From Gemmatimonadota bacterium (GTDB lineage: Bacteria; Gemmatimonadota; Gemmatimonadetes; Palauibacterales; KS3-K002), in contig JBDHAI010000009.1 in NCBI GenBank assembly GCA_039588155.1, forward strand, positions 1-34,699: 34,699 nt of DNA, read 5' to 3'. This document shows, one piece after another, positions 9,917 to 33,826 of the stretch (position 1 is its first letter; each line of letters starts with the position of its first letter). The notes under the pieces are model-generated. The model was not told the origin of the DNA. It made no database searches and saw nothing but the letters and a program-made list of their open reading frames with translations. A program made the translations under genes and the position numbers.

Positions 9917-10772
9917 ACGAATCGCGTTCCTGAGGCCGGATCTCGGGGACCTGCTCCAGATGGCGGTGGTAGCGTACATCTTCTATCGCCTCCTGCTTCT
10001 GTGGGCGGGCACTCGGGCCATCCAGATGCTTCTGGGCCTCATCGTGCTCTTCGCCGTCTATGCCCTCGCCGAGGTGTTGCAGCTGGAATTGATCCGCTAC
10101 CTGCTGCAGATCGTCTTCACCTGGGGCGTGGTGGCGGCCGTCGTCATCTTCCAGCCCGAGTTGCGCAGCGCCCTGACCAAGTTGGGGCAGAACCGTTTTT
10201 GGCGCTTCTTCTCCCGCTCGGAGAAGACGTCCGAGGCGCTGCTGGAGCTGGCTCACGCCGTCGAAGTTCTCGCTCGCAAACGCATCGGCGCGATCCTCGC
10301 CGTCGAGCGTGAGGTCGGTCTAGAAGAGTACGCGCGGAAGGGGACGCCGATCCAGGCGCCGATCTCCACCGAGTTGCTCGAGAGCATCTTCACCCGCTAC
10401 GGCCCCCTCCATGACGGAGCCGTCGTCGTGCGCGGTGAGACGATGATCGCCGCGCGCTGTATCCTCCCGTTGACGCAATTCCCCGTGACCGACCGAAGTC
10501 TCGGCACGCGCCACAGGGCCGCCATCGGGCTGTCCGAGGAAACGGATGCCCTAGTCATCGTCGTCTCGGAGGAGACTGGCCACATCTCGCTAGCGCAACG
10601 GGGCCGTCTAGAGCGGAACGCCAGTGGCGATCGGTTGCGCGAGGCGCTGGGGATCATGCCCGCCGCCCGCGAACCGGCTGCCGCCCCGGTCCAACTGGCC
10701 GCCCCGCTCCAGTCGCCAGAGGCTGCCCCGGGCGAGCTGAGCCTCGTTGACAGAAGCTCTTCCGGGCCCTAG
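9900..10772 (+). CDS. cdaA: Membrane diadenylate cyclase CdaA/DacA (c-di-AMP synthase)
   Basis: Three N-terminal TM helices, IFQPELR, catalytic LHDGA and GTRHRAA motifs, VVSEETG. Confidence 0.94.
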   Translation: MGNFLERIAFLRPDLGDLLQMAVVAYIFYRLLLLWAGTRAIQMLLGLIVLFAVYALAEVLQLELIRYLLQIVFTWGVVAAVVIFQPELRSALTKLGQNRFWRFFSRSEKTSEALLELAHAVEVLARKRIGAILAVEREVGLEEYARKGTPIQAPISTELLESIFTRYGPLHDGAVVVRGETMIAARCILPLTQFPVTDRSLGTRHRAAIGLSEETDALVIVVSEETGHISLAQRGRLERNASGDRLREALGIMPAAREPAAAPVQLAAPLQSPEAAPGELSLVDRSSSGP

Positions 10773-13218: not shown

Positions 13219-13920
13219 ATGTATCTTGAGCGACTCGAGCGCGCTTTGCCCGTAGTCCAACGGCGGATCGAACGGGCTTGCGAGCGGGCCGAGCGCTCCG
13301 ATGCACGTTCCATTACGCTCGTGGCCGTCACCAAAGGCCACCCGCTCGAGGCTCTGCGGGCCGCTCGGCAAGTCGGTCTGAGCGTGATCGGTGAGAATCG
13401 CGTTCAGGAGGCTCGATCGAAGTGGGCGGAGGCGGGGAATCTCGGGCTCGCCTGGCACCTGGTTGGGCATCTACAGCGAAACAAGGCGGGTCAGGCGCTC
13501 GGCATGTTCGACCTCATCCACTCAGTGGATTCGCTGCGCTTGGCGCGCACTCTCGATAAGGAGGCCGAAAAGTCCGGCCGAGCGGCGTCGATTCTGGTTC
13601 AGATCAACGCCAGCGGAGAAGAGTCGAAGTACGGATTAGATGCCGGGGCGGCGTTTTCTGTGCTGCGCGAGATCTGCCAGCTGTCCGGCCTGCGGGTCTC
13701 GGGGTTGATGACGATGGCGCCGTTCACCGATGAGGAATCGATACTACGGAGGACGTTCCGTGGGATGCGGGAGCTCTACGAGCGATGCCGCGATGAGCTG
13801 GAGCGATTCGAGGCCCGGCATCTATCGATGGGAATGACGAACGATTTTGAAATAGCGATCGAGGAGGGCAGCACGATGCTGCGGCTCGGTACGGTGCTGT
13901 TTGGGGAGCGGGGACAATGA
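13219..13920 (+). CDS. yggS: PLP homeostasis protein, YggS family
   Basis: LVAVTK (PLP Lys), GENRVQE, WHLVGHLQRNK, GLMTM, LSMGMTNDFEIAIEEGST.LRLG. Confidence 0.96.
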   Translation: MYLERLERALPVVQRRIERACERAERSDARSITLVAVTKGHPLEALRAARQVGLSVIGENRVQEARSKWAEAGNLGLAWHLVGHLQRNKAGQALGMFDLIHSVDSLRLARTLDKEAEKSGRAASILVQINASGEESKYGLDAGAAFSVLREICQLSGLRVSGLMTMAPFTDEESILRRTFRGMRELYERCRDELERFEARHLSMGMTNDFEIAIEEGSTMLRLGTVLFGERGQ

Positions 13921-14441
13921 TCGATCTAACGCCACTCGATGTAAGAAAAAAGAAGGGCGACTTCCGGCGCGCGGTGCGTGGCTACGATCACGAGCTCGTC
14001 GATGACTTCCTCGACATTGTCGCCGAGCTGTTGGAGGAGCTCGTTAAGCAGAACGAGGCATTGGTCACAGCTCAGCAACTCCGCACCGAGGCGCAGGCGC
14101 AAGCCGACCGGGAAGCGGACCTCGTGCGGCGCGAGGCGCAGAGCCAGGCGGAGCGCATCGTCGAGGAGGGCCAACGATCGCTCCGCGAACTGGCGCGTCA
14201 GATCGAGACCCTTCAGACCAGAAAGGCGCAATTCGTGCGCGCCTTTCGCACACTGCTCGAGCGGTACTACTCCGAGCTCGAGTTGGAGGAGGAGCGGCGC
14301 GAGGAATCCCGGCCGGCCGTTGCCCCGCCGCCGATGCCTTCCGAACCACCTCCCGAGGTGCCTGAGGAAAAGATCGAGAATTCGAGCTCCGATTGGCTGT
14401 CGTCGCTCGTAGCGGAAAGGGAGCAGGAGGAGGCGACCTGA
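13917..14441 (+). CDS. divIVA: DivIVA domain protein
   Basis: LTPLDV...FRRAVRGYD...VDDFLD.V N-terminal domain, then a coiled coil that appears internally shortened. Confidence 0.88.
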   Translation: MIDLTPLDVRKKKGDFRRAVRGYDHELVDDFLDIVAELLEELVKQNEALVTAQQLRTEAQAQADREADLVRREAQSQAERIVEEGQRSLRELARQIETLQTRKAQFVRAFRTLLERYYSELELEEERREESRPAVAPPPMPSEPPPEVPEEKIENSSSDWLSSLVAEREQEEAT

Positions 14442-20487: not shown

Positions 20488-20991
20488 TTGTTCAAGGTGT
20501 CGGACTACGCCAGGCGCCAGCTTCTCTTCGAGGTAGGCGACTACTTGTTCGCCGCCGACGCCGGTGAGGTGCTGGAGATCCTCGAACCGGTAAGCGCGAC
20601 GCCCGTCCCTGGCGCCGTCGCGGGCGTCGACGGTCTGGTCAATCTGCGCGGAAAGCTGATCGTTTCCGGCCATTTCGCGAGGCTACTCGGGTTGAAGCGG
20701 GAAGGGGTGGATGAGCCCGCGCTGGTGGTGTTCGAGCACGGAGGTCGCTCGGTCGCCCTGCAGGTCGATGGAGTCGTGGGAATGGCCCCCGCATCAGGCG
20801 GGGAGCTAGATGTGGGGGGTGACCTTCTAGCGGCGCTGGGCGCACGCGATGTCGTCCGGGGTGTGGGGCGATTCGGATCGCGGCCGTACTTCCAGTTAGA
20901 CATGGCGGCGGTCTTCGCGCGAGTGCTGGAGCGGGACGGCGAGGGTGGTCCGGGGTTAGAGCTGGGATCGACGGAAGGGCAGGTTGCATAA
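20488..20991 (+). CDS. cheW: Chemotaxis coupling protein CheW
   Basis: V.EIL...TPVPGA...V.GLVNLRG and AL.VD.V motifs. Start is TTG 20488 or GTG 20497. Confidence 0.88.
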   Translation: MFKVSDYARRQLLFEVGDYLFAADAGEVLEILEPVSATPVPGAVAGVDGLVNLRGKLIVSGHFARLLGLKREGVDEPALVVFEHGGRSVALQVDGVVGMAPASGGELDVGGDLLAALGARDVVRGVGRFGSRPYFQLDMAAVFARVLERDGEGGPGLELGSTEGQVA

Positions 20992-21353
20992 TGGGCCGCA
21001 CGGTGCTGGTTGTAGATGATGCGATCTTCATGCGCACGATGATCGGTGACATCCTGAAGCAGGCCGGCTTCGAGGTGGTGGGCGAGGCTGCATCGGGCAT
21101 CGAGGCCGTAGAGAGGTACAAGGAGCTGAATCCGGATCTGGTCACCATGGACATCGTTATGCCCGACATGGGTGGAATCGATGCGGTGCGTGCGATCATC
21201 AAAGAGGATCCAGACGCGAGAATCCTCATGTGCAGCGCGATGGGGCAACAGGGTTTGGTGGTCGAAGCGATTCAGGCGGGGGCGCGCGATTTCGTGGTCA
21301 AGCCGTTTCAGCCTTCACGAGTTATCGAAGCTGTTCAGCGCTTGTTGGGATGA
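20991..21353 (+). CDS. cheY: Single-domain response regulator CheY
   Basis: VLVVDDAIFMR, VTMDIVMPDMGG (phospho-Asp), MCSAMGQ, FVVKPF; Thermotoga/Bacillus-like style. Confidence 0.93.
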   Translation: MGRTVLVVDDAIFMRTMIGDILKQAGFEVVGEAASGIEAVERYKELNPDLVTMDIVMPDMGGIDAVRAIIKEDPDARILMCSAMGQQGLVVEAIQAGARDFVVKPFQPSRVIEAVQRLLG

Positions 21354-23011
21354 GCGAGCACGACAAGTACGCCCAGCTATTTGCAGCGGAGGCGCGCGAG
21401 CATCTTTCTGAGATGAGTCGCGCGCTCGTTGCACTGGAGGACGAGCAGCAAGGCGGCGAGGCGCTCGATTCCGTTTTTCGCTCAGTCCACACCATCAAGG
21501 GTATGGCGGGGGCGATGGGCTATGACGTGGCGTCGCGCCTAGCTCACAACATCGAGTCGTTACTGGATGAGCTGAGGTCTGAAGAACGAGAGGCGAGGGG
21601 CGACGTCGTGGACCTTCTGCTCGAGGCCACCGATGTGCTGGACGCCGTCGTCGAGGCGACGGTCGCGGGCAAGCAGCCACCGGATCCGTCAGACATCGTG
21701 GAGCGTCTCGTCCTGTGTCGGCTGGCCGATGAGGGTGGCGGCGGTCCGGAGGTCGGTCGGGCGGCGGCAAGGGAAACGAGGGCCGCTCTGCCTGGGGCGG
21801 CAGGGCCGTCGGGCATTTCCTCGATTGCGCGGGCGGGGGCGACCTCTCGCCGCGCCGACTCGAGTCGCGTTCGCGTCGACATCAGACGGCTCGATGCACT
21901 GCTGAATCTATTGGGTGAACTGACGATCGTGCGCAGTCGTCTGCGAGCGCTGGCCGATGACCTCGAGTCGGAAGGGCTATCCGAAGCTGTGGAAGAAGCG
22001 AGCAAGCTCGTCGGCGAAATGCAGATGCACGTCATTGAAAGCCGAATGGTTCCTGTCTGGCAGATCTTCGATCGTTTTCCGCGGCTCGTGAGAGACGCCG
22101 CGCGTGCAGCGGGGAAGGAAGTGGAGCTGGACATCAGCGGCAAGGAGCTGGAGCTGGATCGTTCGATGCTGGATGCGATCAGCGATCCGCTCGTTCACTT
22201 GTTGCGTAATGCGGTCGACCATGGCATCGAGTCGCCCGACGAGCGCGAGAAGCACGGGAAGCCGCGGGCCGGGCGGGTTGGACTGTCGGCGCGCCGCGAG
22301 CGGTCTCGCGTGGTCATCGTGGTGCGAGACGACGGTCGCGGTATCGACCGCGACGAAATCACGGCTCTGGCACGGCATCGAGGTCTGCTCGCCAAGAACG
22401 CCGAGTTGAGCGATCAGGAGCTGTTCCGGATCGTGGCTCGGCCTGGGTTTTCCACTGTCGAGAAGGTCACGGCGCTTTCCGGTCGCGGTGTCGGGCTCAA
22501 CGTCGTGGACGACACGATTCGCGGACTTGGCGGTTCTGTCGAGCTGCGAACCGAGGAGCGGGGCGGCACGACCGTCCGTCTCGAGCTTCCGCTCACGCTC
22601 GTCATCCTGCCGGCGCTGGTCGTGGAAGTCGGTGGCCAATTCTATGCGCTTCCAGCTACGTTCACCCGGGAGAGCTTCGAAGCGATCGAGTCGGATGTCG
22701 AGCGAGCCCACGGGCGCGAGTGGATCTGCTGGCGTCACGAGCGCGTGCCGCTCACGCGTCTGCAGAGGCTGTTTGGCAACGGCCGCGAGGCTCGCAACGG
22801 TGCTAAGCTAAAGCTGGTAGCGCTGGAATATGGTGGCGAGAAGCTGGTGGTCTCGGTGGATGGCTTCGTGCGCGAGGAGGAGATAGTGGTCAAGTCTTTC
22901 GATCCGCCGCTCGGCACGGTCCCGGTTTTCTCGGGAGCCACAGTTCGTTCGGACGGGCGGCCGGCGCTCGTTGTGGATGTCGGCAACTTAGACGGGGCTA
23001 GTTACTCGTAG
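21350..23011 (+). CDS. cheA: Chemotaxis histidine kinase CheA (P1-P3-P4-P5, no evident P2)
   Basis: FRSVHTIKG Hpt, VRVD..RLD.L.NL.GEL, HLLRNAVDHGIE, DDGRGID, PGFST, SGRGVG, C-terminal CheW domain; ATGA overlap with cheY. Confidence 0.96.
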   Translation: MSEHDKYAQLFAAEAREHLSEMSRALVALEDEQQGGEALDSVFRSVHTIKGMAGAMGYDVASRLAHNIESLLDELRSEEREARGDVVDLLLEATDVLDAVVEATVAGKQPPDPSDIVERLVLCRLADEGGGGPEVGRAAARETRAALPGAAGPSGISSIARAGATSRRADSSRVRVDIRRLDALLNLLGELTIVRSRLRALADDLESEGLSEAVEEASKLVGEMQMHVIESRMVPVWQIFDRFPRLVRDAARAAGKEVELDISGKELELDRSMLDAISDPLVHLLRNAVDHGIESPDEREKHGKPRAGRVGLSARRERSRVVIVVRDDGRGIDRDEITALARHRGLLAKNAELSDQELFRIVARPGFSTVEKVTALSGRGVGLNVVDDTIRGLGGSVELRTEERGGTTVRLELPLTLVILPALVVEVGGQFYALPATFTRESFEAIESDVERAHGREWICWRHERVPLTRLQRLFGNGREARNGAKLKLVALEYGGEKLVVSVDGFVREEEIVVKSFDPPLGTVPVFSGATVRSDGRPALVVDVGNLDGASYS

Positions 23012-23026
23012 CCAACGGTTGCTTTA

Positions 23027-23647
23027 ATGGATGAAGCACAAGATCGACGCGACCTGCAGCTCGATGCGCTGAAAGAGGTCGCGAACGTCGGGGCAGGCCA
23101 TGCGGCGACGGCGCTGAGTCAGCTAACGAATCGCCGGGTGATGATCGACGTTCCCAGTGTGCAGGTATGCGACATCGAGGAAGCGGCTGCGGGTGTGTTG
23201 AACGGGAACGGTGTGGTCGCGGCCATCCTGATGCACGTCCTTGGCGACTTAACGGGGCGCAGTCTTATGCTGTTCGACAAGGACTGCGCGTTGCAGCTCG
23301 CGGATTTGCTACTGAGCAGGGAGCCGGGTACGACCAAGGTATTCGGTGAACTCGAGCAATCATCGCTCAAGGAGACGGCCAACATTCTTACGGGTGCGTA
23401 CTTGGGTGGTCTCTCCGACTTGTTGGGGCTAATGCTCATACCTTCGGTGCCCAGTCTGGCCATCGACCTGTGTGCGGCGGTGCTGTCCACCGCCTATCTC
23501 AACTTTGGGTATGAACGGGGCATCGTGATCATTCTGGACACGCGCTTTAGGTTCGAACCCGGAGGTACCGGCATGGCCGGACACTTTGTTCTCTTGCCGG
23601 ATCCGGCGAGCCTCGACGTGATTCTGAGGGCCGCTCGGCTCACCTAG
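23027..23647 (+). CDS. cheC: CheY-P phosphatase CheC
   Basis: Two ExxN motifs: DALKEVANVGAGHAATALS and SSLKETANIL; PS.P motifs. Confidence 0.93.
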   Translation: MDEAQDRRDLQLDALKEVANVGAGHAATALSQLTNRRVMIDVPSVQVCDIEEAAAGVLNGNGVVAAILMHVLGDLTGRSLMLFDKDCALQLADLLLSREPGTTKVFGELEQSSLKETANILTGAYLGGLSDLLGLMLIPSVPSLAIDLCAAVLSTAYLNFGYERGIVIILDTRFRFEPGGTGMAGHFVLLPDPASLDVILRAARLT

Positions 23648-23651
23648 AAGG

Positions 23652-26369
23652 ATGACTGGACTAGTTCACTCTGAGGACGACCTTCGCGTACTGCGGGCTC
23701 TGGCCAATCGCATAGATCCTGGAGACGCAGGGGCGTGCAACAACCTGGGAGTCGTTTACTTCCAGAAGAGCCTGTTCGAGGAAGCGATCGAGCAGTTTCG
23801 TCGCGCGCTCGAGATCGATGGAAAGATGGAAGTCGCGCGCCGCAATCTTGAGATCGCTTACCATCAGACGGGCTACTACGATCGTCGAATCGCAGAGCTG
23901 ATTGGCCGCATTCAGGCCGACGATGATGACGACAAGGCGCGTCGCGAGTTGGCCGAATCCTTCCTGCAGGCCGGACGTGTAGACGAGGCGATCGCGCAGT
24001 ACGAGACGCTGGCGGGCAGCCACCCCGACGACTGGCGTCTCCTCATGCAACTGGGCAATGCCGAGAAGAATCGGGGCGAGCTGAAGCGCGCCAGCGAGTG
24101 GTTCGAGCGCGTGCGCGAGCTCGAGCCGAAGCGAGCCGCCGTTTACTATGCTCTAGGCGAAATCCTCTACAACCAAGGGATGAATGAAGAGGCCATCGCC
24201 CACCTGCGTAAGGCGCTGTCGCTCGATGCAGGGCTGGCGGATGCCCACCGGCTGCTCAGCTTCATCTACGGCGAGGTCGGCGAGTCGGATAAAGCGGCGG
24301 AACACGCCACGCGAGCGGTCGAGCTCAACCCAGCGGCGGCGCGTGCGCAAGTCAACCTCTCGCTGGACCGCTACAGCTCGGCTCAGTACCACGAGCTGAC
24401 CGGGGGCGAGCCGACGCCGGCGGCGCAGCCCAAGGAGGCCTTCGCGCACCTGGCCCTGGGGATCGCCTTCAGAGCGCGCGGTTTCTACGAGGAAGCGCGA
24501 CAGGAGCTCTCACGGGGACGAGAGGCCGGTGAGGACACAGCGCTGATCGACCAAGCCGAGGCCGAGCTCGCCCTGCTCGAAGGAGACGCCGAAGGTGCGC
24601 TGTCGCGGTACGATGCGCTCCTCTCGAGCCTGGACAGCAGCCCGAAGGTATGGAACGAGCGCGGTGTCGCGCTCCACCAGGTCGGCCGCTTGGATGAGGC
24701 GCAGAAGAGCTACAGCCGTGCGCTGGAGATCGATGAGAACTACGGACTGGCATGGAACAACATAGGCGTTCTGAGTGCTCACCGTGGGGATAGCGCTGCC
24801 GCCGAGGTCGCATTCAAGCGTGCGCTCGAGGTGCAACAGGATTTGGATGACGCGCGACTGAACCTAGGTCTGCTGTGGACGAAGGGCGGGCAACTCGAGA
24901 ATAGTCTGGAACTCCACGAAGAGATGCTGGAGAGCGATGCCAGTCGGGCGGATGCGTGGAACGGCCTGGGCGCGACGTTCATGTCACTGGAGCGTTTTGT
25001 CGAAGCACGTAACGCCTTCGTAAGAGCGGTCGAGCTGAATCCTCATTTTACGCCGGCCCGCTACAACTTGAGCTTCGCTCTCGCTCGACTTGGAGATCAT
25101 GAAGGAGCTCTGCGCGAGACCAAGCAGGCACTCGAGCTCGATCCGTACTACACGTCGCCGCGTTACAAGCTCTCTATCGACCTGCATTACGAAGGAAGTG
25201 AAGTCTGGGCGCCTGAATTGGCGGCGCCCGAGCGAATCGAGGCCCGCGGGCCGGCAATTCGCGACTTCGAGTTCGATCCAGCAGAACTCGAGGATGTGTT
25301 CAAGGAGCTCGACGCTCCGGGCTTGGCCGAGGCGGGAGCCGTGGAAGTGGTCGAGGAGGTCGCGGCCGTCTCGCTCGCGGCGGCACGCGAGTATCTGGCC
25401 AACGGGCTCTACGACCGCGCACTTGCAGAGGCGACACAGGCCGTTCGCGAAGGCGCGGACAGAGCGGATGGCGCGCTGTTGATCGGCGAGGTGTACACGC
25501 AGCGCGGCCTCCACGGTGAGGCGCTCGAGCGCTACGAGCAGGCTCGGCGATTGCGACCCGGTGATCCCGAGGCCCTGGCGGGAGCGGCCCGCTGCCTGCT
25601 GCGGCTCGATAGGTTGGAAGAGGCCCGCGAGTTGGCTGAAGAACTGCAGCCGCAGGCTGGTGATGATCTCGGCTACATGCTGACGGTCGGCGAGATCCTC
25701 ACGCGGTCGGGCGATGCGAAACGGGCGATGGAGGTGCTCGACATCGCTGTCCAAGCGGCGCCCCACGATCCGGTGGTGCATAGGCAGTTGGCGCGGGCGG
25801 CGCTGGCGGGCGGCAACCGTCGGCGCGCCAAGAACGCGTACTGGAAAGCGATTACAGAGGACCCCGACTACGCGGCGGCGCGGGTCGAGCTGGGACAAAT
25901 ATTGGTTGAAGAGGGCGCCTACGACGAGGCGGAAGGTGAGATTCGCCGCGCTTTGCAGCTGATGCCGACGTACACGACGGCCAATTTGGTACTTGCCGAG
26001 CTGCTCTCGCGCCAGGGAAAGACCCGGGAGACTATTAATTTGATCGCCGGCCTATTGGAGGTCGAACCCTACAATATCGACGCCCTGGTGGTCCTAGGCG
26101 AAGCTCTCGCGGCCGAGGGGCGGCAGCGCGACGCCGAGCAGGCATTTAGCCGGGTGCTGCACTTCGATTCCGATCGGTCGATCGCGCTGTTTCGATCGGG
26201 CGAGTTGGCCGCCGAGTCCGGACGTTACCGAGAGGCTCTCAGCTACTGGCGCCGTCTTTTCGAGGTCGATCCGGAAAGCGAATATGCGGCGCGGGCCCGT
26301 GTGCAAGCGCGGGCAGCGCTGGGTCTGAACATCGCCTTACAGGGCGCAGCGGCGCAGGGTGGTGGATAG
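23652..26369 (+). CDS. Large cytoplasmic TPR-repeat protein (905 aa)
   Basis: Many TPR units (e.g. ACNNLGVVYFQKSLFEEAIEQFRRALEID, VWNERGVALHQVGRLDEAQKSYSRALEID) in clusters separated by acidic linkers; no signal peptide. Confidence 0.92.
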   Translation: MTGLVHSEDDLRVLRALANRIDPGDAGACNNLGVVYFQKSLFEEAIEQFRRALEIDGKMEVARRNLEIAYHQTGYYDRRIAELIGRIQADDDDDKARRELAESFLQAGRVDEAIAQYETLAGSHPDDWRLLMQLGNAEKNRGELKRASEWFERVRELEPKRAAVYYALGEILYNQGMNEEAIAHLRKALSLDAGLADAHRLLSFIYGEVGESDKAAEHATRAVELNPAAARAQVNLSLDRYSSAQYHELTGGEPTPAAQPKEAFAHLALGIAFRARGFYEEARQELSRGREAGEDTALIDQAEAELALLEGDAEGALSRYDALLSSLDSSPKVWNERGVALHQVGRLDEAQKSYSRALEIDENYGLAWNNIGVLSAHRGDSAAAEVAFKRALEVQQDLDDARLNLGLLWTKGGQLENSLELHEEMLESDASRADAWNGLGATFMSLERFVEARNAFVRAVELNPHFTPARYNLSFALARLGDHEGALRETKQALELDPYYTSPRYKLSIDLHYEGSEVWAPELAAPERIEARGPAIRDFEFDPAELEDVFKELDAPGLAEAGAVEVVEEVAAVSLAAAREYLANGLYDRALAEATQAVREGADRADGALLIGEVYTQRGLHGEALERYEQARRLRPGDPEALAGAARCLLRLDRLEEARELAEELQPQAGDDLGYMLTVGEILTRSGDAKRAMEVLDIAVQAAPHDPVVHRQLARAALAGGNRRRAKNAYWKAITEDPDYAAARVELGQILVEEGAYDEAEGEIRRALQLMPTYTTANLVLAELLSRQGKTRETINLIAGLLEVEPYNIDALVVLGEALAAEGRQRDAEQAFSRVLHFDSDRSIALFRSGELAAESGRYREALSYWRRLFEVDPESEYAARARVQARAALGLNIALQGAAAQGGG

Positions 26370-27503
26370 ATGCCGATAGAGGGCTCGCTGCGCGAATTCG
26401 CGCTACAAGACATCTTTCAGTTGCTTCACCTGTCGCGAAAGACCGGCGAGCTGAAAGTGGTTCGCGAGCCGTCCGGGCTGCGCGGCGCAGTGATCTTCAG
26501 CGGCGGTGCCGTCGTGGATTCCGATGTGGACGAGGAGACGCCGCGCCTCGGGTACATGTTATTGAACGCCGGAAAGATCACCGAGGCGGATCTCCAGCAT
26601 GCAGGTCGAGTGCATTCGATGGATGCGAGGCGCTCGTGGACGGACATTTTTTCTTCGCTCGGCATACTCGACCAGGAAGACCTCGAGGAGTACGCGAAGT
26701 TTCAGGTCGAGGAGTTCGTCTACGAAGTACTGAGTTGGCAGGACGGACGTTTCTCGTTTGGTGAACGCCCGGTGGCAGAGTCGGAGCGCGTCACCTGGAT
26801 ACCTGTGGAGTCGCTGCTCATGGAGGGGGCCCGACGTGCGGATGAGCTGTCGGCGCTTCCGACGACTATTGACAGCCCCAACGCCGTACCGCGACTGTCA
26901 GAGAAAGCGGCCACAGACGGAGGTATGTTAGATCTCTCGCCACAGGACTGGGAGGTCATAGGCCGGGTGGACGGCGTCACGGATGTGAAGTCGCTCGCCT
27001 GGACCCTTGGGCGCAGCGAGTTCGAGGTGAGTAAGGTCATCTCGCTGCTCGTTCAGAAGGGGCTGATCGAGCTGCAGAGTCAGGAAGATGCACGCACCAA
27101 ACCCCCGCATGTGATGGCCCTTGATCGAGTCGAGCGAGAGATCGAGGCCGGCGAGCTGGATGTGGCCCGCAGGCACATAGACTCCGTGCTCAGAGCGCAC
27201 CCCGAGGAGCCCCGTGCTCACCTTTTGGCGGCGCGCATCCTCGAGCACTCCCGCGATCTGAGGGCGGCCGCGGAGTGCTACGAAAAGACACTCAGCTTCG
27301 ATCCGTTGGCGGAGGAGGCACGGCAGCGATTGGGTCTACTGAAGCTCCGACTCGGGGACGTTGACGGAGCTGCGCGAGAGTGGACGGCATACTTGAGGAT
27401 GGCTCCGAATACGCCTGACCGCCGGCGTGTTGAGCGGGCGATGGCTGCAGTCAGAGAGCTGCAAATCATACTGAGCGAGTTCGATGGCAGGGAACATCCG
27501 TAG
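26370..27503 (+). CDS. DUF4388 (PATAN-like) protein with C-terminal TPRs
   Basis: IEGSL.EF.L.DIFQLL....KTGEL, W..G.F.F, ESLLMEGARR.DE, an HTH-like segment, then about 3 TPRs. Confidence 0.88.
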   Translation: MPIEGSLREFALQDIFQLLHLSRKTGELKVVREPSGLRGAVIFSGGAVVDSDVDEETPRLGYMLLNAGKITEADLQHAGRVHSMDARRSWTDIFSSLGILDQEDLEEYAKFQVEEFVYEVLSWQDGRFSFGERPVAESERVTWIPVESLLMEGARRADELSALPTTIDSPNAVPRLSEKAATDGGMLDLSPQDWEVIGRVDGVTDVKSLAWTLGRSEFEVSKVISLLVQKGLIELQSQEDARTKPPHVMALDRVEREIEAGELDVARRHIDSVLRAHPEEPRAHLLAARILEHSRDLRAAAECYEKTLSFDPLAEEARQRLGLLKLRLGDVDGAAREWTAYLRMAPNTPDRRRVERAMAAVRELQIILSEFDGREHP

Positions 27504-28281
27504 ATCGCTGCAGGAGCTGAGCGCCGAGGTCGCGACGAACCCGAACTCGACCGCGTTCGTTGAGTTGGCTGCCGCGTATCGCGAGCGCGGCGACGCCCGT
27601 CGTGCGCTTTGGCTGTGTCTGCGGGGACTGCAGCGACATCCCACGCACGTGGAGGCTCACTTCGAGCTTGGTCGGATCTATGAAGCGCGAGGCGAGCGGG
27701 AGTTGGCGCTGGACGAATGGAACATCGTCCGGCAACTGGCGCCCGATCACCTCGCTTCGCGCCTCGCCTTGGTACGGCTCTACATCAGCGAGGGCCGACG
27801 AGCCGACGCGCAGGTCGAGCTCGAAGCCGCTCAGGAAATCTCCCAGGGGAACGCGATTATTACGGAACTCTGGGATGAGCTTGAGGACCTCGACGAGGAC
27901 AGACCCGTCGCCGCACGGGAGGGTGTCTTCGATAGTCTGGTCGCGGACTATCCCGGCACTCTGGGGATTCTGCTCATCGATCGAGACGGCCGGGTGATCG
28001 TAGGGGGGATTTCGCAGGAAGGCGTGGAGTCGGATATGGCGCTGGCCGTGAATCTCTACAGCGCCCAGGCGGAGGCGGAACGCGTGGCGTCGTACCTCGG
28101 AATGGGCGACCTGAGTGGGTTCGTTGTCGAGAGTGACTCGGCGCGGCTTACCGTTTCGCCGGTGGAAGAGAATGTGGTCGTCGTCGTGACGAGCCACGAT
28201 GTTCCGGCGGGGCGGGCGGCTCGTGTGGGTCAGAGGGCGTGGCAAGTCGCGCAAGATTACCTGAGCACCAACGGGCGATGA
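27484..28281 (+). CDS. TPR + roadblock/LC7 fusion protein
   Basis: N-terminal NPNSTAFVELAAAYRERG...HP..VEAHFELG TPRs; C-terminal GILLIDRDGRVIVG...LGMGDLSGFVVES...PAGRA roadblock fold. Confidence 0.8.
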   Translation: MAGNIRRSLQELSAEVATNPNSTAFVELAAAYRERGDARRALWLCLRGLQRHPTHVEAHFELGRIYEARGERELALDEWNIVRQLAPDHLASRLALVRLYISEGRRADAQVELEAAQEISQGNAIITELWDELEDLDEDRPVAAREGVFDSLVADYPGTLGILLIDRDGRVIVGGISQEGVESDMALAVNLYSAQAEAERVASYLGMGDLSGFVVESDSARLTVSPVEENVVVVVTSHDVPAGRAARVGQRAWQVAQDYLSTNGR

Positions 28282-28643
28282 GAGGAACTCCGTACGAAAA
28301 CACGCTGGCTCATGTGATGAGAATGCCCGGAGTGCGCGGCGCCCTGGTCGTCGCAGTCCGAGACGGCCTCGTGGTTGATGGGCGAGTGCACGTTGGCGTC
28401 CACGGAGAGGCTGTCGCCGCGCTCGCCGCATCGCTCTATCGACGTGCCTGCCGAGCGACAGGGGACGGCGAAGGCGAGGGCCGTTTCGTCGAGCTCGATG
28501 CTGAGCGGGGCCGGATCATGATCGCGGGCCAGGGCGATCTCGCCCTGATGGCCTTTGTGGAACGGCGGGCCAATGCTGGCCAGGTCCGGCTCGCCGTGCG
28601 GCGGGCGGCGCAGAGCCTCGACGCTTCGGGAGAAGTCGTCTAG
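28278..28643 (+). CDS. Roadblock/LC7 domain protein
   Basis: PGVRGALVVAVRDGLVV...AVAALAASL...ANAGQVRL; ATGA overlap with the upstream gene. Confidence 0.88.
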   Translation: MRGTPYENTLAHVMRMPGVRGALVVAVRDGLVVDGRVHVGVHGEAVAALAASLYRRACRATGDGEGEGRFVELDAERGRIMIAGQGDLALMAFVERRANAGQVRLAVRRAAQSLDASGEVV

Positions 28644-29132
28644 ATGGACCGCCTCGATCTGCGGCAGATCCAAGAGGCCTTTTCCAGTCCGCTGGAAGAA
28701 TTCGTGCGCGAGACACGAGTACGGCTCGCCGTGTTGATCAACCGCAGCGGCCAGGTCCTGGCGCAGCACGGATTCGACAAGCTCTTCGACCTGGTGGGCG
28801 TCGCCTCGCTGGCCGCGGGGATCAACGCCTCGAGTCGCGCGCTGGCTGTGCAGCTGGGTGAAGAGGAGTTCGAGCATTTGCACCACGCTGGCCGTTCCCG
28901 CCAGCTGTTCCTCGGGCACTTCGACTCCGCCGCCGGCCAGTTGATGCTGGTGACGGTGTTTGATGAGCGGTCCTCGATCGGGCTGGTGAGACTGTTTTTC
29001 GAGGAATTCGTTATGCGTCTGCGTGGGCTGCCTGCGATGGATATGGCGCGCTCGCGGATAAGCGCACAGCAATTCGAAGCCGAACTCGAGGCGAGTCTCG
29101 ACCGGTTTTTCCAAGATTTGATAGGCACCTGA
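28644..29132 (+). CDS. mglB: MglB-type roadblock protein (probable GAP of MglA)
   Basis: LINRSGQVLAQHG, SLAAG.....ALA..LGE.EF....H.G, VFDERSSIGLVRL, acidic C-terminal helix; directly upstream of mglA. Confidence 0.85.
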   Translation: MDRLDLRQIQEAFSSPLEEFVRETRVRLAVLINRSGQVLAQHGFDKLFDLVGVASLAAGINASSRALAVQLGEEEFEHLHHAGRSRQLFLGHFDSAAGQLMLVTVFDERSSIGLVRLFFEEFVMRLRGLPAMDMARSRISAQQFEAELEASLDRFFQDLIGT

Positions 29133-29134
29133 TC

Positions 29135-29755
29135 ATGTCGCTGGTCAACTACGCCACGCGCGAAATAACCTGCAAGATCGTCTACTACGGGCCCGGTCGC
29201 TCGGGCAAGACGACGAATCTGCAATACATCCACAGTCGTGTTCCGTGGGATCGCAAGGGCGAGATGGTTTCGCTGGCCACCGAAGCGGATCGCACGTTGT
29301 TCTTCGATTTCCTACCGATCAATCTCGGCGACATCTCAGGATTCACGACGCGATTTCAGCTTTATACGGTGCCTGGCCAGGTGTACTACAACGCTACGCG
29401 CAAGCTCGTTTTGCAGGGAGCGGACGGAGTCGTCTTCGTAGCGGACAGCCAGAGGTCGCAAATGGACTCGGATATCGAGTCGTTCAGAAACCTGCAACAG
29501 AACCTTCTGGAGCACGGCATCGATGTGCGGGATATCCCGGTGGTCATTCAGTATAACAAGCGGGACCTGCCTAATGTCTTCAGCATCGAGCAACTGGATG
29601 AGGAATTGAACTTCCGCGACGTGCCGAGTTATCCGGCCTCAGCGCTGATGGGTGAAGGTGTCTTCGATACGCTGCGAGCGGTCAGCGAGGGAGTATTGAG
29701 GAAGCTGGCTGGCAAGCTCGAGATTCCGAAGGGGCTAGAAGTTTCGAGGCGCTGA
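29135..29755 (+). CDS. mglA: MglA small Ras-like GTPase
   Basis: REI.CKIVYYGPGRSGKTTNL, SLATE.DRTLFFD (intrinsic Arg finger), YTVPGQ, DGVVFVADSQ, YNKRDL. Confidence 0.95.
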   Translation: MSLVNYATREITCKIVYYGPGRSGKTTNLQYIHSRVPWDRKGEMVSLATEADRTLFFDFLPINLGDISGFTTRFQLYTVPGQVYYNATRKLVLQGADGVVFVADSQRSQMDSDIESFRNLQQNLLEHGIDVRDIPVVIQYNKRDLPNVFSIEQLDEELNFRDVPSYPASALMGEGVFDTLRAVSEGVLRKLAGKLEIPKGLEVSRR

Positions 29756-30942
29756 TGGTAGCGAGCGTGATCGACCCAGGCTTGACCTTTAAGTCGTTCG
29801 TGTTGGGAGCGGAGAACCGCCTTGCCTGGGAGGCCGCACGGACCACCTCGGAGTCACCTGGCTCGGCATACAATCCCCTCTTCATCTACAGCGCGACCGG
29901 CCTCGGCAAGACGCACCTTCTCGTAGCCATAGCTAACCAGGCCAAGGAACTGCACCCGGGAATGAAGGTCGTCTACACACCGCTCGAGCAGCTGCTACGG
30001 GAATTGGAAAGCAGGGAAGAGCCCGAGGCCGATTTTCTGGGCTCGGAGATCCTGCTGATCGACGACCTGCAGTTCATTGGAAACCACAGCGAAAGCCACC
30101 AGGTGCTGTTCAACCTCCTGGATCACATGCTCATGGCCGGCAAGCAGGTGGCATTGGCGTGCGATCGGCCGCCGTTGGAGCTGGGCGCGCTCGATGACCG
30201 TTTGCTGTCCCGGTTCAGCGGCGGGCTGGTGGTCGACATCGGCCGGCCTCTGCTCGAGACGCGCCGCGCGATCCTCGAGGTCAGGCTCGCGGCCGTCGGC
30301 CAGTCACTGCGGCCTGAGGTCGTCGATGCCATCGCGCGTCTGGCGTTGGAGAACGTGCGCCAGTTGAAGGGAGCGCTGAATCGTGTACTGGCCGCCCAAA
30401 AGGCAGAAGGGCGAGATGTCGAGGCCGATGAGATCGATCGATTGCTTGCCGATGTGGTAGGCGACCCGGACATGCCCTGGCTCGATGAGGGGCGTGCGAA
30501 GACGCGCGGCGAGTTCCGCGATTTCCTCAGCGATGTGTCGACGGCCGTCGAGGAGGCTCTCGGCTCGCCGGCCTGGAGAGAGGAGCTGGCCCGGGCGATC
30601 CTCAAGTGGGAGGCCGAGGGTTACGTCACCAAGAGGCTCGAAGACTTTCTGGATGTGGAAGACACCGTCGATGCCGAGAAACTCGTCAGCAACTTCGAGC
30701 GAGACATCGCCGCACTCAAGGCGCTGGAGCGGGAGCTCGAGCGGCTCGGGGCACCGAAGCCCCGCGACCTGAGCCTCAAGGATCCCGATTGCGTTGGAGA
30801 TGTCCGGGCACTGCTCGAGCAGGTTCGCCGTGAGACGCTGGCCGTCGACGACTATTTCTTCGACTCCGAGAAGGTCGTCTGGGAGTGGCCGGTGATCGAA
30901 GAACTGCTGATCGAGGCATGGGACGATGGCGATCAAGGGTAG
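29755..30942 (+). CDS. DnaA/Hda-family AAA+ ATPase lacking DnaA domains I, II and IV, with an unassigned acidic C-terminal region
   Basis: TF.SFV.G.ENRLA, YNPLFIY..TGLGKTHLL, LLIDDLQF, CDRPP, RLLSRF.GGL, ETRRAIL, NVRQL.GAL; then an unrelated ~170-aa tail ending DDYFFDSEKVVWEWP. Confidence 0.88.
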   Translation: MVASVIDPGLTFKSFVLGAENRLAWEAARTTSESPGSAYNPLFIYSATGLGKTHLLVAIANQAKELHPGMKVVYTPLEQLLRELESREEPEADFLGSEILLIDDLQFIGNHSESHQVLFNLLDHMLMAGKQVALACDRPPLELGALDDRLLSRFSGGLVVDIGRPLLETRRAILEVRLAAVGQSLRPEVVDAIARLALENVRQLKGALNRVLAAQKAEGRDVEADEIDRLLADVVGDPDMPWLDEGRAKTRGEFRDFLSDVSTAVEEALGSPAWREELARAILKWEAEGYVTKRLEDFLDVEDTVDAEKLVSNFERDIAALKALERELERLGAPKPRDLSLKDPDCVGDVRALLEQVRRETLAVDDYFFDSEKVVWEWPVIEELLIEAWDDGDQG

Positions 30943-32557
30943 CCTGAAAGAGGCCAGTCTGCCCGACGTCTTGCAGCTCCTGACGATGGGAGGCAAGACC
31001 GGTTGTTTGTCGGTAACCGATCGTCAGAGTTTCGGCTACATCTACTTTCGTGAAGGGCGGATCATCTACGCCTCGCTGCTCAACCGGCGCGACCGGCTGG
31101 GCGACGTTTTCGTACGTGAGAATGTAATTTCGCGCCACGAGCTCGACGCAGCGATCGCGGAACAAAGCGAGAAGCGCGATGGACGGCGGCTTGGCGAGAT
31201 CCTCGTCAACCGGGAGCTCATCGATCAAGAGACGTTGGAGCGTTTTGTAAAGTACCATATCCAGGAGGCTGTCTACCATCTCTTCACGTGGAATTCTGGC
31301 ACCTTCTACTTCGAGCCGGCCAAGTCCCCGGAGCGCGAGAAGATTCTCGTGTCGATCGACCCCGAAAGTCTACTCTTGGAGGGCGCTCGCCGTGTCGACG
31401 AGTGGAGCCAGATCCGTAAGAAGGTCCCGTCGCTCGAGGTCGTATACACTCTCGATTCAGATCGCGCCGGCTCGTTATCATCGCTGGACCTCAGCCCGCA
31501 AGAAGAGAAGATCCTCCCGTACCTCGATGGAAAGCACACCGGTTGGGACCTGATTGACCAGACCGCGCTCGGTGAGTTCGAGGTCGGCCAGGCGCTCTAC
31601 GGTCTGATCTCCGCCGGCCTCGCGCGAAGGACGGGTCGGCGCGCGCGTGATACCTCGAGGTCGGAGCAAGGAGGGCGGCTCGAAGAGCACAAGAATCTCG
31701 GCGTGGCCTTCTACAAGACCGCGATGTTCGAGGAAGCGGTGAGAGAGCTGAGATTGGTGCTCGAGCTCTCTCCCAAGGACCTGGATGCGGATTTCTTCCT
31801 GGCTCTCGTGGCGTTCCGTGAGGGGGACTATCAAGCCGCCGAGGCAAAGCTGCGGCAGATCATGGAGCGAGGCGGTACGCGGCCGGCGGCGTACAACAAC
31901 CTGGCGATAGTGCTCAGCCGTCTGGGGAAGATGGCCGAAGCGTTCGCTGTCCTCGATGCTGGCCTCGAGCTCACGCCGGGACATGCGAGGCTGTGCCTGA
32001 CCAAGGGGATCCTTCAGCTGCGCGAGGCCGATCCGGCCGCCGCGAAGAGCACTCTGGAACGTTATGCGGAGCTGGTGGGCGATGAACGGTCTGCTCTCTA
32101 CTACTCGGCACGGGCACTGGCGGAAGCCATGTCGGCGGACCTCGATGCTGCCGCCAACCTGTCCGAGGAGGGGATCGCGCGACATCCGGAGTCTGCGGCT
32201 CTGGCCAACAACGCCGGCGTGGTCATGGAGCGTCGAGGGGATTACGAGCGGGCGCGCGAGCTGTATGAGATGGCGTTTGAGCACGAGTCGGCGCTTGCGC
32301 AGGCCTCCAAGAATCTGGGGGATCTGCTCTACCGAGATGGTCGTTATGAGGACGCCGCCGAAGCCTACCAGCGTGCGCTGCGCACGGAGCCCGACCTGGG
32401 TGATGACGTGTACGCCAAGCTGGGTAACGTCTATTACAAGAGTAGAGATCGGGAGCTGGCGGTCCAGATGTGGGAACGCGCCCTGAGAATGAACCCAGCC
32501 AACGAGGTGGTGCGCACGAACTTGGAATTCGTGAGGGGCACAGGCGGTGATCGCTGA
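30926..32557 (+). CDS. DUF4388 (PATAN-like) protein with an MshEN-like insert and C-terminal TPRs
   Basis: IKGSL.E.SLPDVLQLL...KTG.L, tandem RLG motifs, W.SG.F.F, ESLLLEGARRVDEW, then multiple TPRs. Confidence 0.88.
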   Translation: MAIKGSLKEASLPDVLQLLTMGGKTGCLSVTDRQSFGYIYFREGRIIYASLLNRRDRLGDVFVRENVISRHELDAAIAEQSEKRDGRRLGEILVNRELIDQETLERFVKYHIQEAVYHLFTWNSGTFYFEPAKSPEREKILVSIDPESLLLEGARRVDEWSQIRKKVPSLEVVYTLDSDRAGSLSSLDLSPQEEKILPYLDGKHTGWDLIDQTALGEFEVGQALYGLISAGLARRTGRRARDTSRSEQGGRLEEHKNLGVAFYKTAMFEEAVRELRLVLELSPKDLDADFFLALVAFREGDYQAAEAKLRQIMERGGTRPAAYNNLAIVLSRLGKMAEAFAVLDAGLELTPGHARLCLTKGILQLREADPAAAKSTLERYAELVGDERSALYYSARALAEAMSADLDAAANLSEEGIARHPESAALANNAGVVMERRGDYERARELYEMAFEHESALAQASKNLGDLLYRDGRYEDAAEAYQRALRTEPDLGDDVYAKLGNVYYKSRDRELAVQMWERALRMNPANEVVRTNLEFVRGTGGDR

Positions 32558-33350
32558 AGACGCCGCATATGCCGCGCTGCTCGCGAAGGTGGAACGCGAG
32601 CGCGGCTTTCGTGGAACACACTATCGGCAGCGATGCTTACGGCGGCGCGTGGCCGTGCGTATGCGGGCGCGTCGAGTCCAAGAGATAGCAGACTACGCAG
32701 CGCTGCTCGACGACGATCCTGCCGAGTATGACCTGCTGATGCGCGTGCTGACGATCAACGTCAGCAAGTTCTTCCGTAACCCAGAGACATGGGATGTCAT
32801 TAAGAGGGAAGTGGTTCCGGAGCTGCTGCGCCGCGAGCCGCCCCTACTCATCTGGAGCGCCGGATCGGCAGCCGGTGAAGAGGCCTACAGCATTTCGATT
32901 CTCGTGTCGGACTGGCTGGCCAGTCGGGGCGAAGCCACCCGGAACCGGGTGAGGATCATCGGGACCGACATCGACGATGAGAGCCTGAGTGCCGCACGCA
33001 GCGCCGAGTACACCGATGTGGCGCTCTCGGAGACCCCCATGTCGTTGCGCCGGCGCTGGTTCTCCAAGGCCAAAGACTGGAAGCTCAAAGAGCCCGTCGC
33101 CTCGGCGGTCGAGTTCCAGCAGCTGGATGTTCTCGAAGGACGACCGGACTTTCAGGCCGACCTGATTCTCTGCCGCAACCTGTTGATCTACCTGGATCGG
33201 CCTGCACAATCGCGGGTGTTCCAGACCTTCGTCGATGTATTGCGTCCGAGGGGGTATCTAGTACTCGGCCGAGTCGAGATGTTGGGTGCCGAAGTTCGGA
33301 CGCGCTTCGAGGCGATCAACTCACGAGAGAGGATTTACCGGAAGCTGTGA
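32547..33350 (+). CDS. cheR: Protein-glutamate O-methyltransferase CheR
   Basis: LTINVSKFFRN, WSAGSAAGEEAYS, GTDID, DLILCRNLLIY, GYLVLG..E. Confidence 0.95.
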   Translation: MIAEDAAYAALLAKVERERGFRGTHYRQRCLRRRVAVRMRARRVQEIADYAALLDDDPAEYDLLMRVLTINVSKFFRNPETWDVIKREVVPELLRREPPLLIWSAGSAAGEEAYSISILVSDWLASRGEATRNRVRIIGTDIDDESLSAARSAEYTDVALSETPMSLRRRWFSKAKDWKLKEPVASAVEFQQLDVLEGRPDFQADLILCRNLLIYLDRPAQSRVFQTFVDVLRPRGYLVLGRVEMLGAEVRTRFEAINSRERIYRKL

Positions 33351-33826
33351 GAGAATTCGTCTTGGCCGGAGAAAGTCGAGTGGGAAGAGGCGAGGGCACT
33401 CTCTCCGTTCTGGGCTTGGGCTCGTGTGTCGCGATCGTGCTGTACGATCGGCAGACGCGAGTCGGTGGACTGGCCCACGTGCTCCTGCCAGACCCGGCCT
33501 TCTCTTCGAATCCGGATCAACGCTGGCGGTTCGCGACAACGGCCATCCCCGACTTGCTGAAGGAGGTCGAGAGGGCGGGCGCGATACGTACACAGGTGAC
33601 GGCGAGGCTCGTGGGCGGAGCCTGCATGTTCCAGGAGCTGATAGCCAAGAACGGTCCTCATATCGGCAAGCGCAACGTTGCGGCGGCGCGCACGACGCTG
33701 GATGAGGGCGGCGTCAGGATAGTTGCGGAAGAAGTTGGTGGTGATTTCGGGCGTTCGGTGGACTTCGACCTCGAAAACGGGCGCGTGAGGGTCTCATCGC
33801 ACGGGCGAGATGATGTCGAAATCTGA
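33347..33826 (+). CDS. cheD: Chemoreceptor glutamine deamidase CheD
   Basis: LGLGSCVA (catalytic Cys), GGLAHVLLP (His), GGA.MF, IG.RN, VGG..GR. Confidence 0.94.
   Translation: MREFVLAGESRVGRGEGTLSVLGLGSCVAIVLYDRQTRVGGLAHVLLPDPAFSSNPDQRWRFATTAIPDLLKEVERAGAIRTQVTARLVGGACMFQELIAKNGPHIGKRNVAAARTTLDEGGVRIVAEEVGGDFGRSVDFDLENGRVRVSSHGRDDVEI

Follow-up and report, generated by a model that had tools for sequence, protein, structure and literature searches.

The stretch of DNA analysed here, hereafter the window, covers positions 1 to 34,699 (34,699 nucleotides, forward strand) of contig JBDHAI010000009.1 in the Gemmatimonadota assembly GCA_039588155.1. Within an operon that combines chemosensory (Che) and MglA polarity genes, directly downstream of mglA, we found a gene whose 395-amino-acid product is built on the ATPase module of the replication initiator DnaA but has no DNA-binding domain. 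The identity, architecture, conservation and synteny of this gene were established by the comparisons presented below. As to its role, we lean with moderate confidence towards a non-initiator DnaA paralogue that serves as the domain-III AAA+ ATPase of the Che-MglA polarity module and that would be ATP-gated, self-associating and tethered to a polarity scaffold. To our knowledge, the ATP module of DnaA is regarded as dedicated to replication initiation, and its known offshoots (Hda, DnaC/DnaI and IstB) all act in DNA transactions; here a phylum keeps a DnaA-derived ATPase without DNA-binding domain in an MglA polarity and chemosensory operon. If our reading is true, small-GTPase polarity systems would gain an ATP-driven component, a third nucleotide switch alongside the GTPase and the phosphorelay, and the engine of the initiator would be redeployable for protein assembly.

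A sequence-only reading of this DNA had proposed that the protein begins at DnaA domain III, keeps Walker A, Walker B, sensor I, the box VII arginine and sensor II, carries shortened and acidic initiator-specific helices, and ends in a Trp-rich tail in place of domain IV. All of these features were recovered when we compared the protein with family models and with E. coli DnaA. In Pfam, the model PF00308 (Bac_DnaA) spans residues 9-161 (E 8.4e-41, 140 bits), and in NCBIfam, positions 103-339 of the 437-position DnaA model TIGR00362 correspond to residues 5-235, with a score of 222.1 bits that falls under the equivalog cut-off of 343.9, so that the protein does not belong to DnaA by score. Since this alignment begins at model position 103, which meets protein residue 5, and ends at 339, the DnaA-like protein begins at domain III, without domains I and II, and ends before domain IV. 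For the latter (Bac_DnaA_C, PF08299) the protein showed no hit with an E of 0.01 or less, and Pfam gave no match in its last 160 residues, where the tail terminates in ...DDYFFDSEKVVWEWPVIEELLIEAWDDGDQG. The two gene junctions are also as previously described: the mglA stop overlaps the ATG at 29755 (cgcTGATGgta), and the downstream gene begins at 30926, 17 nucleotides within the end of the DnaA-like gene at 30942. The gene and its parts are as follows.

29755..30942, forward strand: DnaA-like AAA+ gene, short single-module form, 395 amino acids (open reading frame with the PF00308 and TIGR00362 matches given above)
29755..30459, forward strand: AAA+ module, residues 1-235, equivalent of DnaA domain III (structure superposition, phmmer, pLDDT about 90)
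29890..29913, forward strand: Walker A, S46-ATGLGKT-53 (K52 kept in 113/113 short-form relatives)
29983..30048, forward strand: shortened acidic initiator-specific segment, residues 77-98 (6-residue gap at E. coli positions 215-220)
30049..30066, forward strand: Walker B, I99-LLIDD-104 (D103 and D104 each kept in 113/113)
30199..30213, forward strand: box VII, R149...R153, arginine finger equivalent (aligned with E. coli R281 and R285; each kept in 113/113)
30358..30360, forward strand: sensor II, R202 (aligned with E. coli R334; kept in 112/113)
30460..30564, forward strand: low-confidence hinge, residues 236-270 (pLDDT below 50)
30565..30837, forward strand: family-specific helical linker domain, residues 271-361 (motifs EFxxFL and ILKWEAEGYxTxRLE; helices with pLDDT 79-92)
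30841..30924, forward strand: C-terminal Trp-rich docking peptide, residues 363-390, ...DDYFFDSEKVVWEWPVIEELLIEAWD (predicted interface; conserved; low pLDDT in the monomer)

Motifs were assigned from the alignment with E. coli DnaA, and the functional names of the aligned residues (sensor I for D137, box VII and arginine finger for R149 and R153, sensor II for R202) are those which we take to be current in the DnaA literature. Counts out of 113 refer to window-type short-form relatives, and those from named loci, introduced below, were taken separately. D137, which aligns with E. coli D269 at the sensor I position, is invariant among the 113, as are the residues listed above with the exception of R202, and in the 21 proteins of the window clade found in named loci all catalytic positions are kept (21/21). 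The initiator-specific segment, LEQLLRELESREEPEADF, has lost the six residues corresponding to E. coli 215-220, a gap present in 112-113 of the 113 relatives in each column, whereas these residues are kept in tandem relatives and in DnaA.

The host assembly (3.25 Mb, 437 contigs) is 84% complete. A far stronger PF00308 match (236 bits) was found on another of its contigs, C227, where the only PF08299 match of the whole genome falls in the same 473-codon frame. The true dnaA, whose location the sequence-only reading had set as a first check, is therefore on C227, complete with domain IV, and the window gene is a second DnaA-III paralogue. The observations that this reading had named as fatal to it were not made: the gene has no domain IV, is not the sole dnaA of its genome, and is not decaying. 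With DnaA the protein has in common the fold and sequence of domain III (Z 31, rmsd 1.3-1.6, 36-39% identity) and all ATPase motifs. It differs from DnaA in its missing domains, its score, its shorter initiator-specific segment, its new helical linker and Trp-rich tail, its polarity-operon context and the presence of a separate true dnaA in the genome.

The model of the structure agrees with these limits. An AlphaFold2 model of the window protein, built on a 129-row alignment, has a mean predicted local distance difference test score (pLDDT) of 80.2 and a predicted template modelling score (pTM) of 0.58, with residues 1-235 confident, 236-270 below 50, a confident helical domain at 271-361 and low confidence at 363-395. 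For the AAA+ part, close superpositions on domain III of DnaA were obtained (2z4r_A, Z 31.2, root-mean-square deviation (rmsd) 1.6 over 233 aligned residues; 8bv3_A, Z 31.0, rmsd 1.3; VIA-align), and alignments to chains containing domain IV end at model residue 233-236. When Foldseek alignments were forced across 370-388 columns, the rmsd rose to 14-16 Å. No sign of a domain IV fold was seen in structural matches that cover model residues 1-241, the tail not having been searched on its own; the fold prediction of the tail, another check proposed from the sequence, gave the helical domain followed by the low-confidence end. Sequence searches with the tail gave nothing below E 0.47 in the PDB and no usable match in the ESM Atlas (residues 236-395), and the linker domain, which is kept in both short and tandem forms in our alignments, has no Pfam or PDB sequence match.

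An alternative raised from the sequence was that the protein acts like Hda, linking polarity to replication through the real DnaA: the protein would insert its arginine finger into the ATP-binding site of the true DnaA or become part of DnaA oligomers, and would in this way couple the polarity or chemosensory state to initiation. The invariant box VII arginines would suit such a regulator, and with a module 38-39% identical to domain III of B. subtilis DnaA, mixed oligomers are conceivable. However, the sequence and fold of the protein are much nearer DnaA than Hda. The Hda model TIGR03420 scores 76.5 bits against a cut-off of 194.8, which places the protein outside Hda by score, and the sequence match to Hda has an E of 1e-05 versus 2e-45 for DnaA (1.7e-45 with phmmer against 8bv3). 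The fold match to Hda (3bos_A) has a Z of 21.1 and an rmsd of 4.7, versus Z 31 for DnaA. Hda binds the beta clamp through an N-terminal QL-type motif, and E. coli Hda shows QLSLPL; by eye we saw no such motif at the N-terminus of the window protein (MVASVIDPGLTF / MVASVIDPGLTFKSF), nor in the family consensus. Although Hda and HdaA are likewise DnaA-related AAA+ modules that keep the arginine finger without a DNA-binding domain, the window protein further departs from them in being 395 amino acids long with a 160-amino-acid tail. The shortened initiator-specific segment also speaks against an Hda-like role, as do the neighbours, which are all motility or polarity genes: in the loci examined (12 + 80, see below) the DnaA-like gene is never beside dnaA or dnaN. 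We found no support for this link, and consider it very unlikely.

Still less likely, in our opinion, is a role on nucleic acids, in which the AAA+ module would use its initiator-specific segment to bind single-stranded DNA or RNA and might serve as a loader or remodeller. The module does belong to the initiator/loader clade; structures of DnaC, IstB and DnaI match with Z 17-19, and PF01695 (IstB) gives 29 bits. However, that match covers only residues 45-125 and lies beneath the 140-bit PF00308 match, and the IstB/DnaC helper model NF038214, with a score of 38, stays far under its cut-off of 200 and is not the best match. No DNA-binding domain was found in the protein by Pfam, and the one match of the whole-genome PF08299 search is that on C227. 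The segment that would hold the strand is six residues shorter and acidic, and the context of the gene is one of signalling.

Relatives of the window protein explain its architecture. A word-indexed search returned 119 close relatives (49-98% identity), whose organism label, where given, was always Gemmatimonadota; alignment A3 took in 112 of 380-402 amino acids. A search with region 230-400 of P0121 returned only two proteins, and in this and the other searches for relatives every organism that was named likewise belonged to Gemmatimonadota. In an exhaustive search of cluster representatives, the more distant relatives were mostly 560-700 amino acids long, and those of about 650 carry two PF00308 modules each, as had been anticipated for some orthologues; in fact most of them have the second ATPase domain. 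Compared by BLASTP with one such protein (P0122, 661 amino acids), window residues 4-345 match 3-361, that is the first module (AAA1) and the helical linker; the window AAA+ module also matches 412-602 (AAA2), and residues 341-389 (EKVVWEWP...LIEAW) match the extreme C-terminus at 612-660. This pattern with its internal gap means that the window protein corresponds to the tandem architecture minus the second module. By sequence, then, it represents the single-module version of a family from Gemmatimonadota whose members are mostly tandems of about 650 amino acids (AAA1, linker, AAA2, C-terminal peptide). Likewise, in the model of a tandem orthologue (G142, 649 amino acids; pLDDT 90.4, pTM 0.56), AAA1 spans 1-236, the helical linker 258-363 and AAA2 386-602, and the end has low confidence.

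Named loci were drawn from the best 80 of 208 confirmed by the linker-motif alignment A2; 78 of these 80 are labelled Gemmatimonadota, and the other two "uncultured bacterium" and "Bacterium HR33". Three forms of the protein are found in them: the window clade, with a constant 392-396 amino acids across 20 loci including Candidatus Kutchimonas denitrificans; a short form of 393-402 amino acids in Longimicrobium and Longimicrobiaceae; and the tandem form of 579-669 amino acids in Gemmatimonadales and others. Short and tandem proteins all end in [E/D]K-x-x-W-x-W-[P/L]...[D/E]R..EE. The window protein has the family linker domain (EFxxFL...ILRWEGEGxRTxRLE; alignments A1 and A2) and the EKxxWxW[P/L] C-terminal peptide, and lacks the second AAA+ module. 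It thus has AAA1, the linker, the terminal EKxxWxWP peptide and the place between mglA and the PATAN-TPR gene in common with the tandem proteins, from which it differs by the absence of AAA2, the 6-residue deletion and a long stem branch.

A FastTree phylogeny of 216 AAA+ modules has three groups: the AAA2 modules, with 45 rows and a support of 95; true DnaAs together with E. coli Hda, 43 rows; and AAA1 modules plus every single-module form, 128 rows, of which 116 make up a core with support 97. With IQ-TREE (46 rows, six true DnaAs as outgroup), the family has a support of 100/99, and the window clade (13 rows, 100/100, stem branch 0.71) is sister to the rest of the family. The Longimicrobium-type short forms nest among tandem forms, and the short state takes two to three changes on this tree. 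Constraining all 22 short rows to one clade lowered the log-likelihood by 24.98 (p-AU 0.028 in the approximately unbiased test), a weak rejection as the group was picked after seeing the tree. Given that the AAA2 modules group together and that in the tandems the terminal peptide follows AAA2, these sequences are explained economically by a tandem ancestor from which AAA2 was lost at least twice, the root within the family not being established.

The loss of a whole AAA+ module relative to most relatives could suggest that the window gene is a decaying fragment of a tandem gene without a function of its own. We give this idea practically no chance, and the conservation data contradict it: all motifs are kept in 112 near-full-length relatives at roughly 50-98% identity, the length is constant in the 20 named loci, and the coupling to both neighbours is kept.

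The catalytic residues point to different ATPase states across lineages. In tandem proteins (n=42), AAA1 has all positions in 42/42 except the arginine finger, which is R in 37/42, and AAA2 keeps both arginines in 42/42 and the D137 equivalent in only 6/42. From these sequences we infer that AAA2 would give an arginine to the catalytic AAA1 in tandems, and that the window lineage, after losing AAA2, would depend on its own invariant arginine in homo-oligomers. The tandem form, the catalytically complete single-module form of the window and the dead-sensor single-module form of Longimicrobium, to which we return below, provide ready hypotheses on the purpose of the ATPase cycle.

The genes surrounding the DnaA-like gene form a single co-directional string, from cheW, cheY, cheA and cheC/X through TPR genes, Roadblock genes and mglB-mglA to the DnaA-like gene, the PATAN-TPR gene and cheR-cheD-cheB.

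20488-20991, forward strand: cheW (Pfam)
20991-21353, forward strand: cheY, 120 amino acids (CheY-like open reading frame)
21230-23011, forward strand: cheA, longest open reading frame (Pfam)
23027-23647, forward strand: cheC/X (Pfam)
23652..26369, forward strand: 905-amino-acid TPR protein (many TPR families)
26370..27503, forward strand: first PATAN(DUF4388)-TPR protein (PF14332 E 2.8e-28)
27484..28281, forward strand: TPR-Roadblock fusion protein (TPR families and PF03259)
28239..28643, forward strand: second Roadblock/LC7 protein (PF03259 E 9.6e-08)
28644..29132, forward strand: mglB, Roadblock/LC7, like a GTPase-activating protein (GAP) (PF03259; NF052242 E 1.1e-14, under its cut-off)
29135..29755, forward strand: mglA, Ras-like GTPase (Arf/Ras-type matches; 57-87% identical copies in the same place in relatives)
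30926..32557, forward strand: PATAN(DUF4388)-TPR protein, 543 amino acids, predicted docking partner (PF14332 E 2.5e-39 and TPRs)
31712..32410, forward strand: TPR groove predicted to receive the peptide, residues 263-495 (co-fold interface)
32547-33350, forward strand: cheR (Pfam)
33347-33826, forward strand: cheD (Pfam)
33810 to the window end (34697), open, forward strand: cheB (open reading frame and synteny)

The cheY-like gene overlaps the first 124 nucleotides of the longest cheA reading frame, whose real start is probably the ATG encoding MSEHDKY, about 120 nucleotides downstream of 21230.

Gene order was examined in 12 loci from phylum genomes and in the 80 named loci, two sets that have at least two contigs in common (L016 = L042 and L017 = L056). 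In the former the order is kept, with the PATAN-TPR gene downstream in 12/12 and mglA upstream in 11/12. In the named loci, the PATAN-TPR gene is downstream in all 75 assessable cases (5 run off the contig) and mglA is upstream in 70 of 71, adjacent in 62 and behind a spacer in 8, with 9 loci not assessable. The window gene has the same place between mglA and PATAN-TPR. Of 201 phylum genomes, which are related and hence not independent samples, 134 have the tail and 156 have MglA (E up to 1e-30), and both are distributed alike across families; leaving out 4 unpublished genomes, the counts are 130/197 and 152/197. An MglA match is present in 133 of the 134 tail-positive genomes, the exception being G107. 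The spacer between mglA and the DnaA-like gene was seen in eight loci labelled Longimicrobium (L051, L052, L053, L057, L059, L065, L073 and L076), where it is 436-699 nucleotides long, G+C-rich and without a convincing open reading frame (e.g. L052:4762-5284); in other lineages the genes abut or overlap. The window genome also has a second MglA paralogue, 63% identical (G000:C302:2913-3488, reverse strand), and most phylum genomes have two matches.

Such proximity suggests that the protein might instead be an effector or regulator of MglA, whose AAA+ module or helical linker would bind the GTP or GDP form directly. It would work as an exchange factor, a co-GAP or an effector, and its contact with the TPR protein would be secondary or absent. 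The TGATG junction, the near-constant position of mglA upstream, the co-occurrence in 133 of 134 genomes and the conserved linker domain without assigned partner all agree with this possibility, whereas the DnaA-like/PATAN-TPR pair is kept without nearby mglA in two loci (L025 and L084). We judge it unlikely, if clearly more plausible than the Hda-like or nucleic-acid roles; it is compatible with an ATPase tethered to the polarity scaffold and does not exclude it.

The PATAN-TPR pair was chosen for co-folding because it has the tightest linkage and because the tail peptide, although conserved, is left unstructured in the monomer model. Full-length DnaA-like and PATAN-TPR proteins were co-folded with alignments A3 (129 rows) and A4 (55 rows), and the interface score ipSAE was 0.83, 0.84 and 0.82 in three runs, versus 0.00 for the best of three controls. 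The runs have at least 60% of contacts in common, with a partner pLDDT of 70-71. The pass mark used is reached by 116/157 solved complexes and 2/215 mismatched pairs, rates that are only rough for this case since our own alignments were used. Even though its location was left unconstrained, the interface on the DnaA-like side consists only of residues 363-376, 378-381 and 383-390, which is the Trp-rich peptide, and on the other side of TPR residues 263-495; the lowest errors were between E372-V375, W378 and L385-I386 and N324/N325, A425-V432 and Q459-N463. TPR residues at the interface vary less than those elsewhere in the TPR region (mean entropy 1.29 versus 1.64 bits, 48 versus 237 residues; one-sided Mann-Whitney p 0.006), and conserved contacts include E435, Q459, K462 and D466. 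Within the peptide, D365, F368, E372, K373, W378, P379 and E387 are 93-99% conserved, and the DNA pattern encoding EKxxW[D/E]WP occurs once in the assembly. The last residues, 391-395 (DGDQG), fall outside the predicted interface, and they are conserved because their codons overlap those of the invariant MAIKG with which the downstream gene starts. These predictions support, in silico only, a docking of the tail in the TPR groove of the neighbouring scaffold.

TPR domains that bind C-terminal peptides are well known, for example Hop or CHIP with the EEVD tails of Hsp70 and Hsp90, and PEX5 with PTS1. As in those systems, an extended or helical peptide at the terminus would, by prediction, run along a concave groove lined with Asn and Lys (N324, N325, N428, N429, Q459, K462, N463, D466). 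The window pair differs in its motif, EKxxWxWP...E, in leaving the very last residues (391-395) unused, and in that the client is an initiator-clade AAA+ ATPase.

The mechanism we propose would begin with the C-terminal peptide seated in the concave TPR groove of the downstream PATAN-TPR protein, as modelled, which would tether the ATPase to the scaffold. As in DnaA-type modules, the box VII arginine could then link ATP-bound AAA+ modules head to tail, and the nucleotide state would set the number of scaffold molecules clustered. Such an assembly may act together with MglA/MglB and be controlled by the chemosensory pathway encoded on either side; its target would probably be a machine of the type IV pilus type. 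The idea of a repurposed initiator ATPase acting as a signalling switch, put forward from the sequence, fits everything examined here (the paralogue, the synteny, the conserved motifs, the docking prediction and the receiver domain of one relative, P0192, described below), its cellular role being the part that we only infer. A bolder version, which we think improbable, is that the initiator-type AAA+ polymer is a polar landmark: ATP-bound DnaA-like modules would polymerise much as DnaA does at an origin, on protein rather than on DNA, with one PATAN-TPR protein per Trp-rich tail. Governed by the chemosensory pathway, such a polar hub would form and dissolve and would position type IV pilus motors and MglA, in Gemmatimonadota a role like that of RomR-type scaffolds in Myxococcus.

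Our guess of a pilus-type output comes from cyanobacteria, where PATAN domains are reported in a preprint to bind the pilus ATPase PilB1 and PilC (bioRxiv 10.1101/2021.06.11.447907). The window genome has four T2SSE-type (PilB/PilT-like) ATPases and two methyl-accepting chemotaxis protein genes elsewhere, and FliG_C gave no match in this 84%-complete genome. In the relevant sections of Wuichet and Sogaard-Andersen (2014, PMC4316618), the MglA of Gemmatimonadetes is placed in Group 1 and PATAN genes are described near some mglA genes; "DnaA" does not occur in the paper, its supplementary table S2 being outside what was covered. The closest known arrangement is the Frz pathway acting on the MglA/MglB module of Myxococcus xanthus, which, going by the same sections (PMC4316618), has in common with the window a Che-type pathway, MglA, MglB/Roadblock and TPR/PATAN proteins; in the window all parts are in one operon, and a DnaA-derived ATPase is included.

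Several points weigh against an ATP-gated, scaffold-tethered switch. In Longimicrobium-type short forms (n=18, e.g. L020, L050-L054 and L057), the sensor II arginine, the R149 equivalent and D137 are each kept in only 2/18. Because these forms lost all three, it appears from their sequences that at least one lineage can do without ATP hydrolysis. All 18 keep the Walker A lysine, and the second Walker B position is often E or Q; this lineage would therefore be a nucleotide-binding, hydrolysis-poor form. No mglA was found near the DnaA-like gene in L025 (about 9 kb) and L084 (5.2 kb). The docking comes from one set of co-folding runs; TPR-peptide complexes are a well-solved class, so that the pass may partly reflect likeness to them, and the control that replaced chain 1 is not stated to be a TPR protein. 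The second PATAN-TPR protein alone was co-folded, and the operon has three other TPR proteins, so that the partner within the operon may be another of them. The link to type IV pili is indirect: the genome has the T2SSE-type ATPases and no FliG_C match, but is only 84% complete.

Our literature searches returned no publication on the tandem/short DnaA-like family, although supplementary table S2 of PMC4316618, outside their coverage, may list such neighbours. What appears to be new here, from sequences and models, is the derivation of the short form from a tandem, the contrast between lineages in catalytic residues, and the predicted peptide-in-groove contact.

Other architectures were met among the relatives. 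The metagenomic protein P0192 (738 amino acids) has a C-terminal receiver domain (PF00072, residues 613-728, E 1.5e-11) where others have the Trp-rich peptide. Seven further proteins (P0213, P0224, P0238, P0226, P0255, P0153 and P0159) carry other non-initiator arrangements on a DnaA-type AAA+ module, fused to DUF835 or zinc ribbons or, in two-module proteins of 1,876-1,990 amino acids, to MshEN; FastTree groups them with true DnaAs. In the metagenome bins L044 (259 amino acids and a remainder), L021, L060, L063 and L085, the DnaA-like gene is split or frame-shifted, which may reflect assembly errors or decay.

Near-identical pieces of 28644-32557 were found in marine-sediment and sediment metagenome contigs from 20 runs in 12 studies, the largest sampled-word share being 0.45. 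None of these runs is recorded as RNA. One run, X13, guessed to be RNA, has four small contigs at 90% or more, of which one of 375 nucleotides (29473-29847) spans the mglA/DnaA-like junction; since DNA may be in the run, these contigs show nothing about transcription. Upstream of the operon, among housekeeping genes, the window also encodes a CdaA-type diadenylate cyclase (9900-10772) and a DivIVA homologue (13917-14441).

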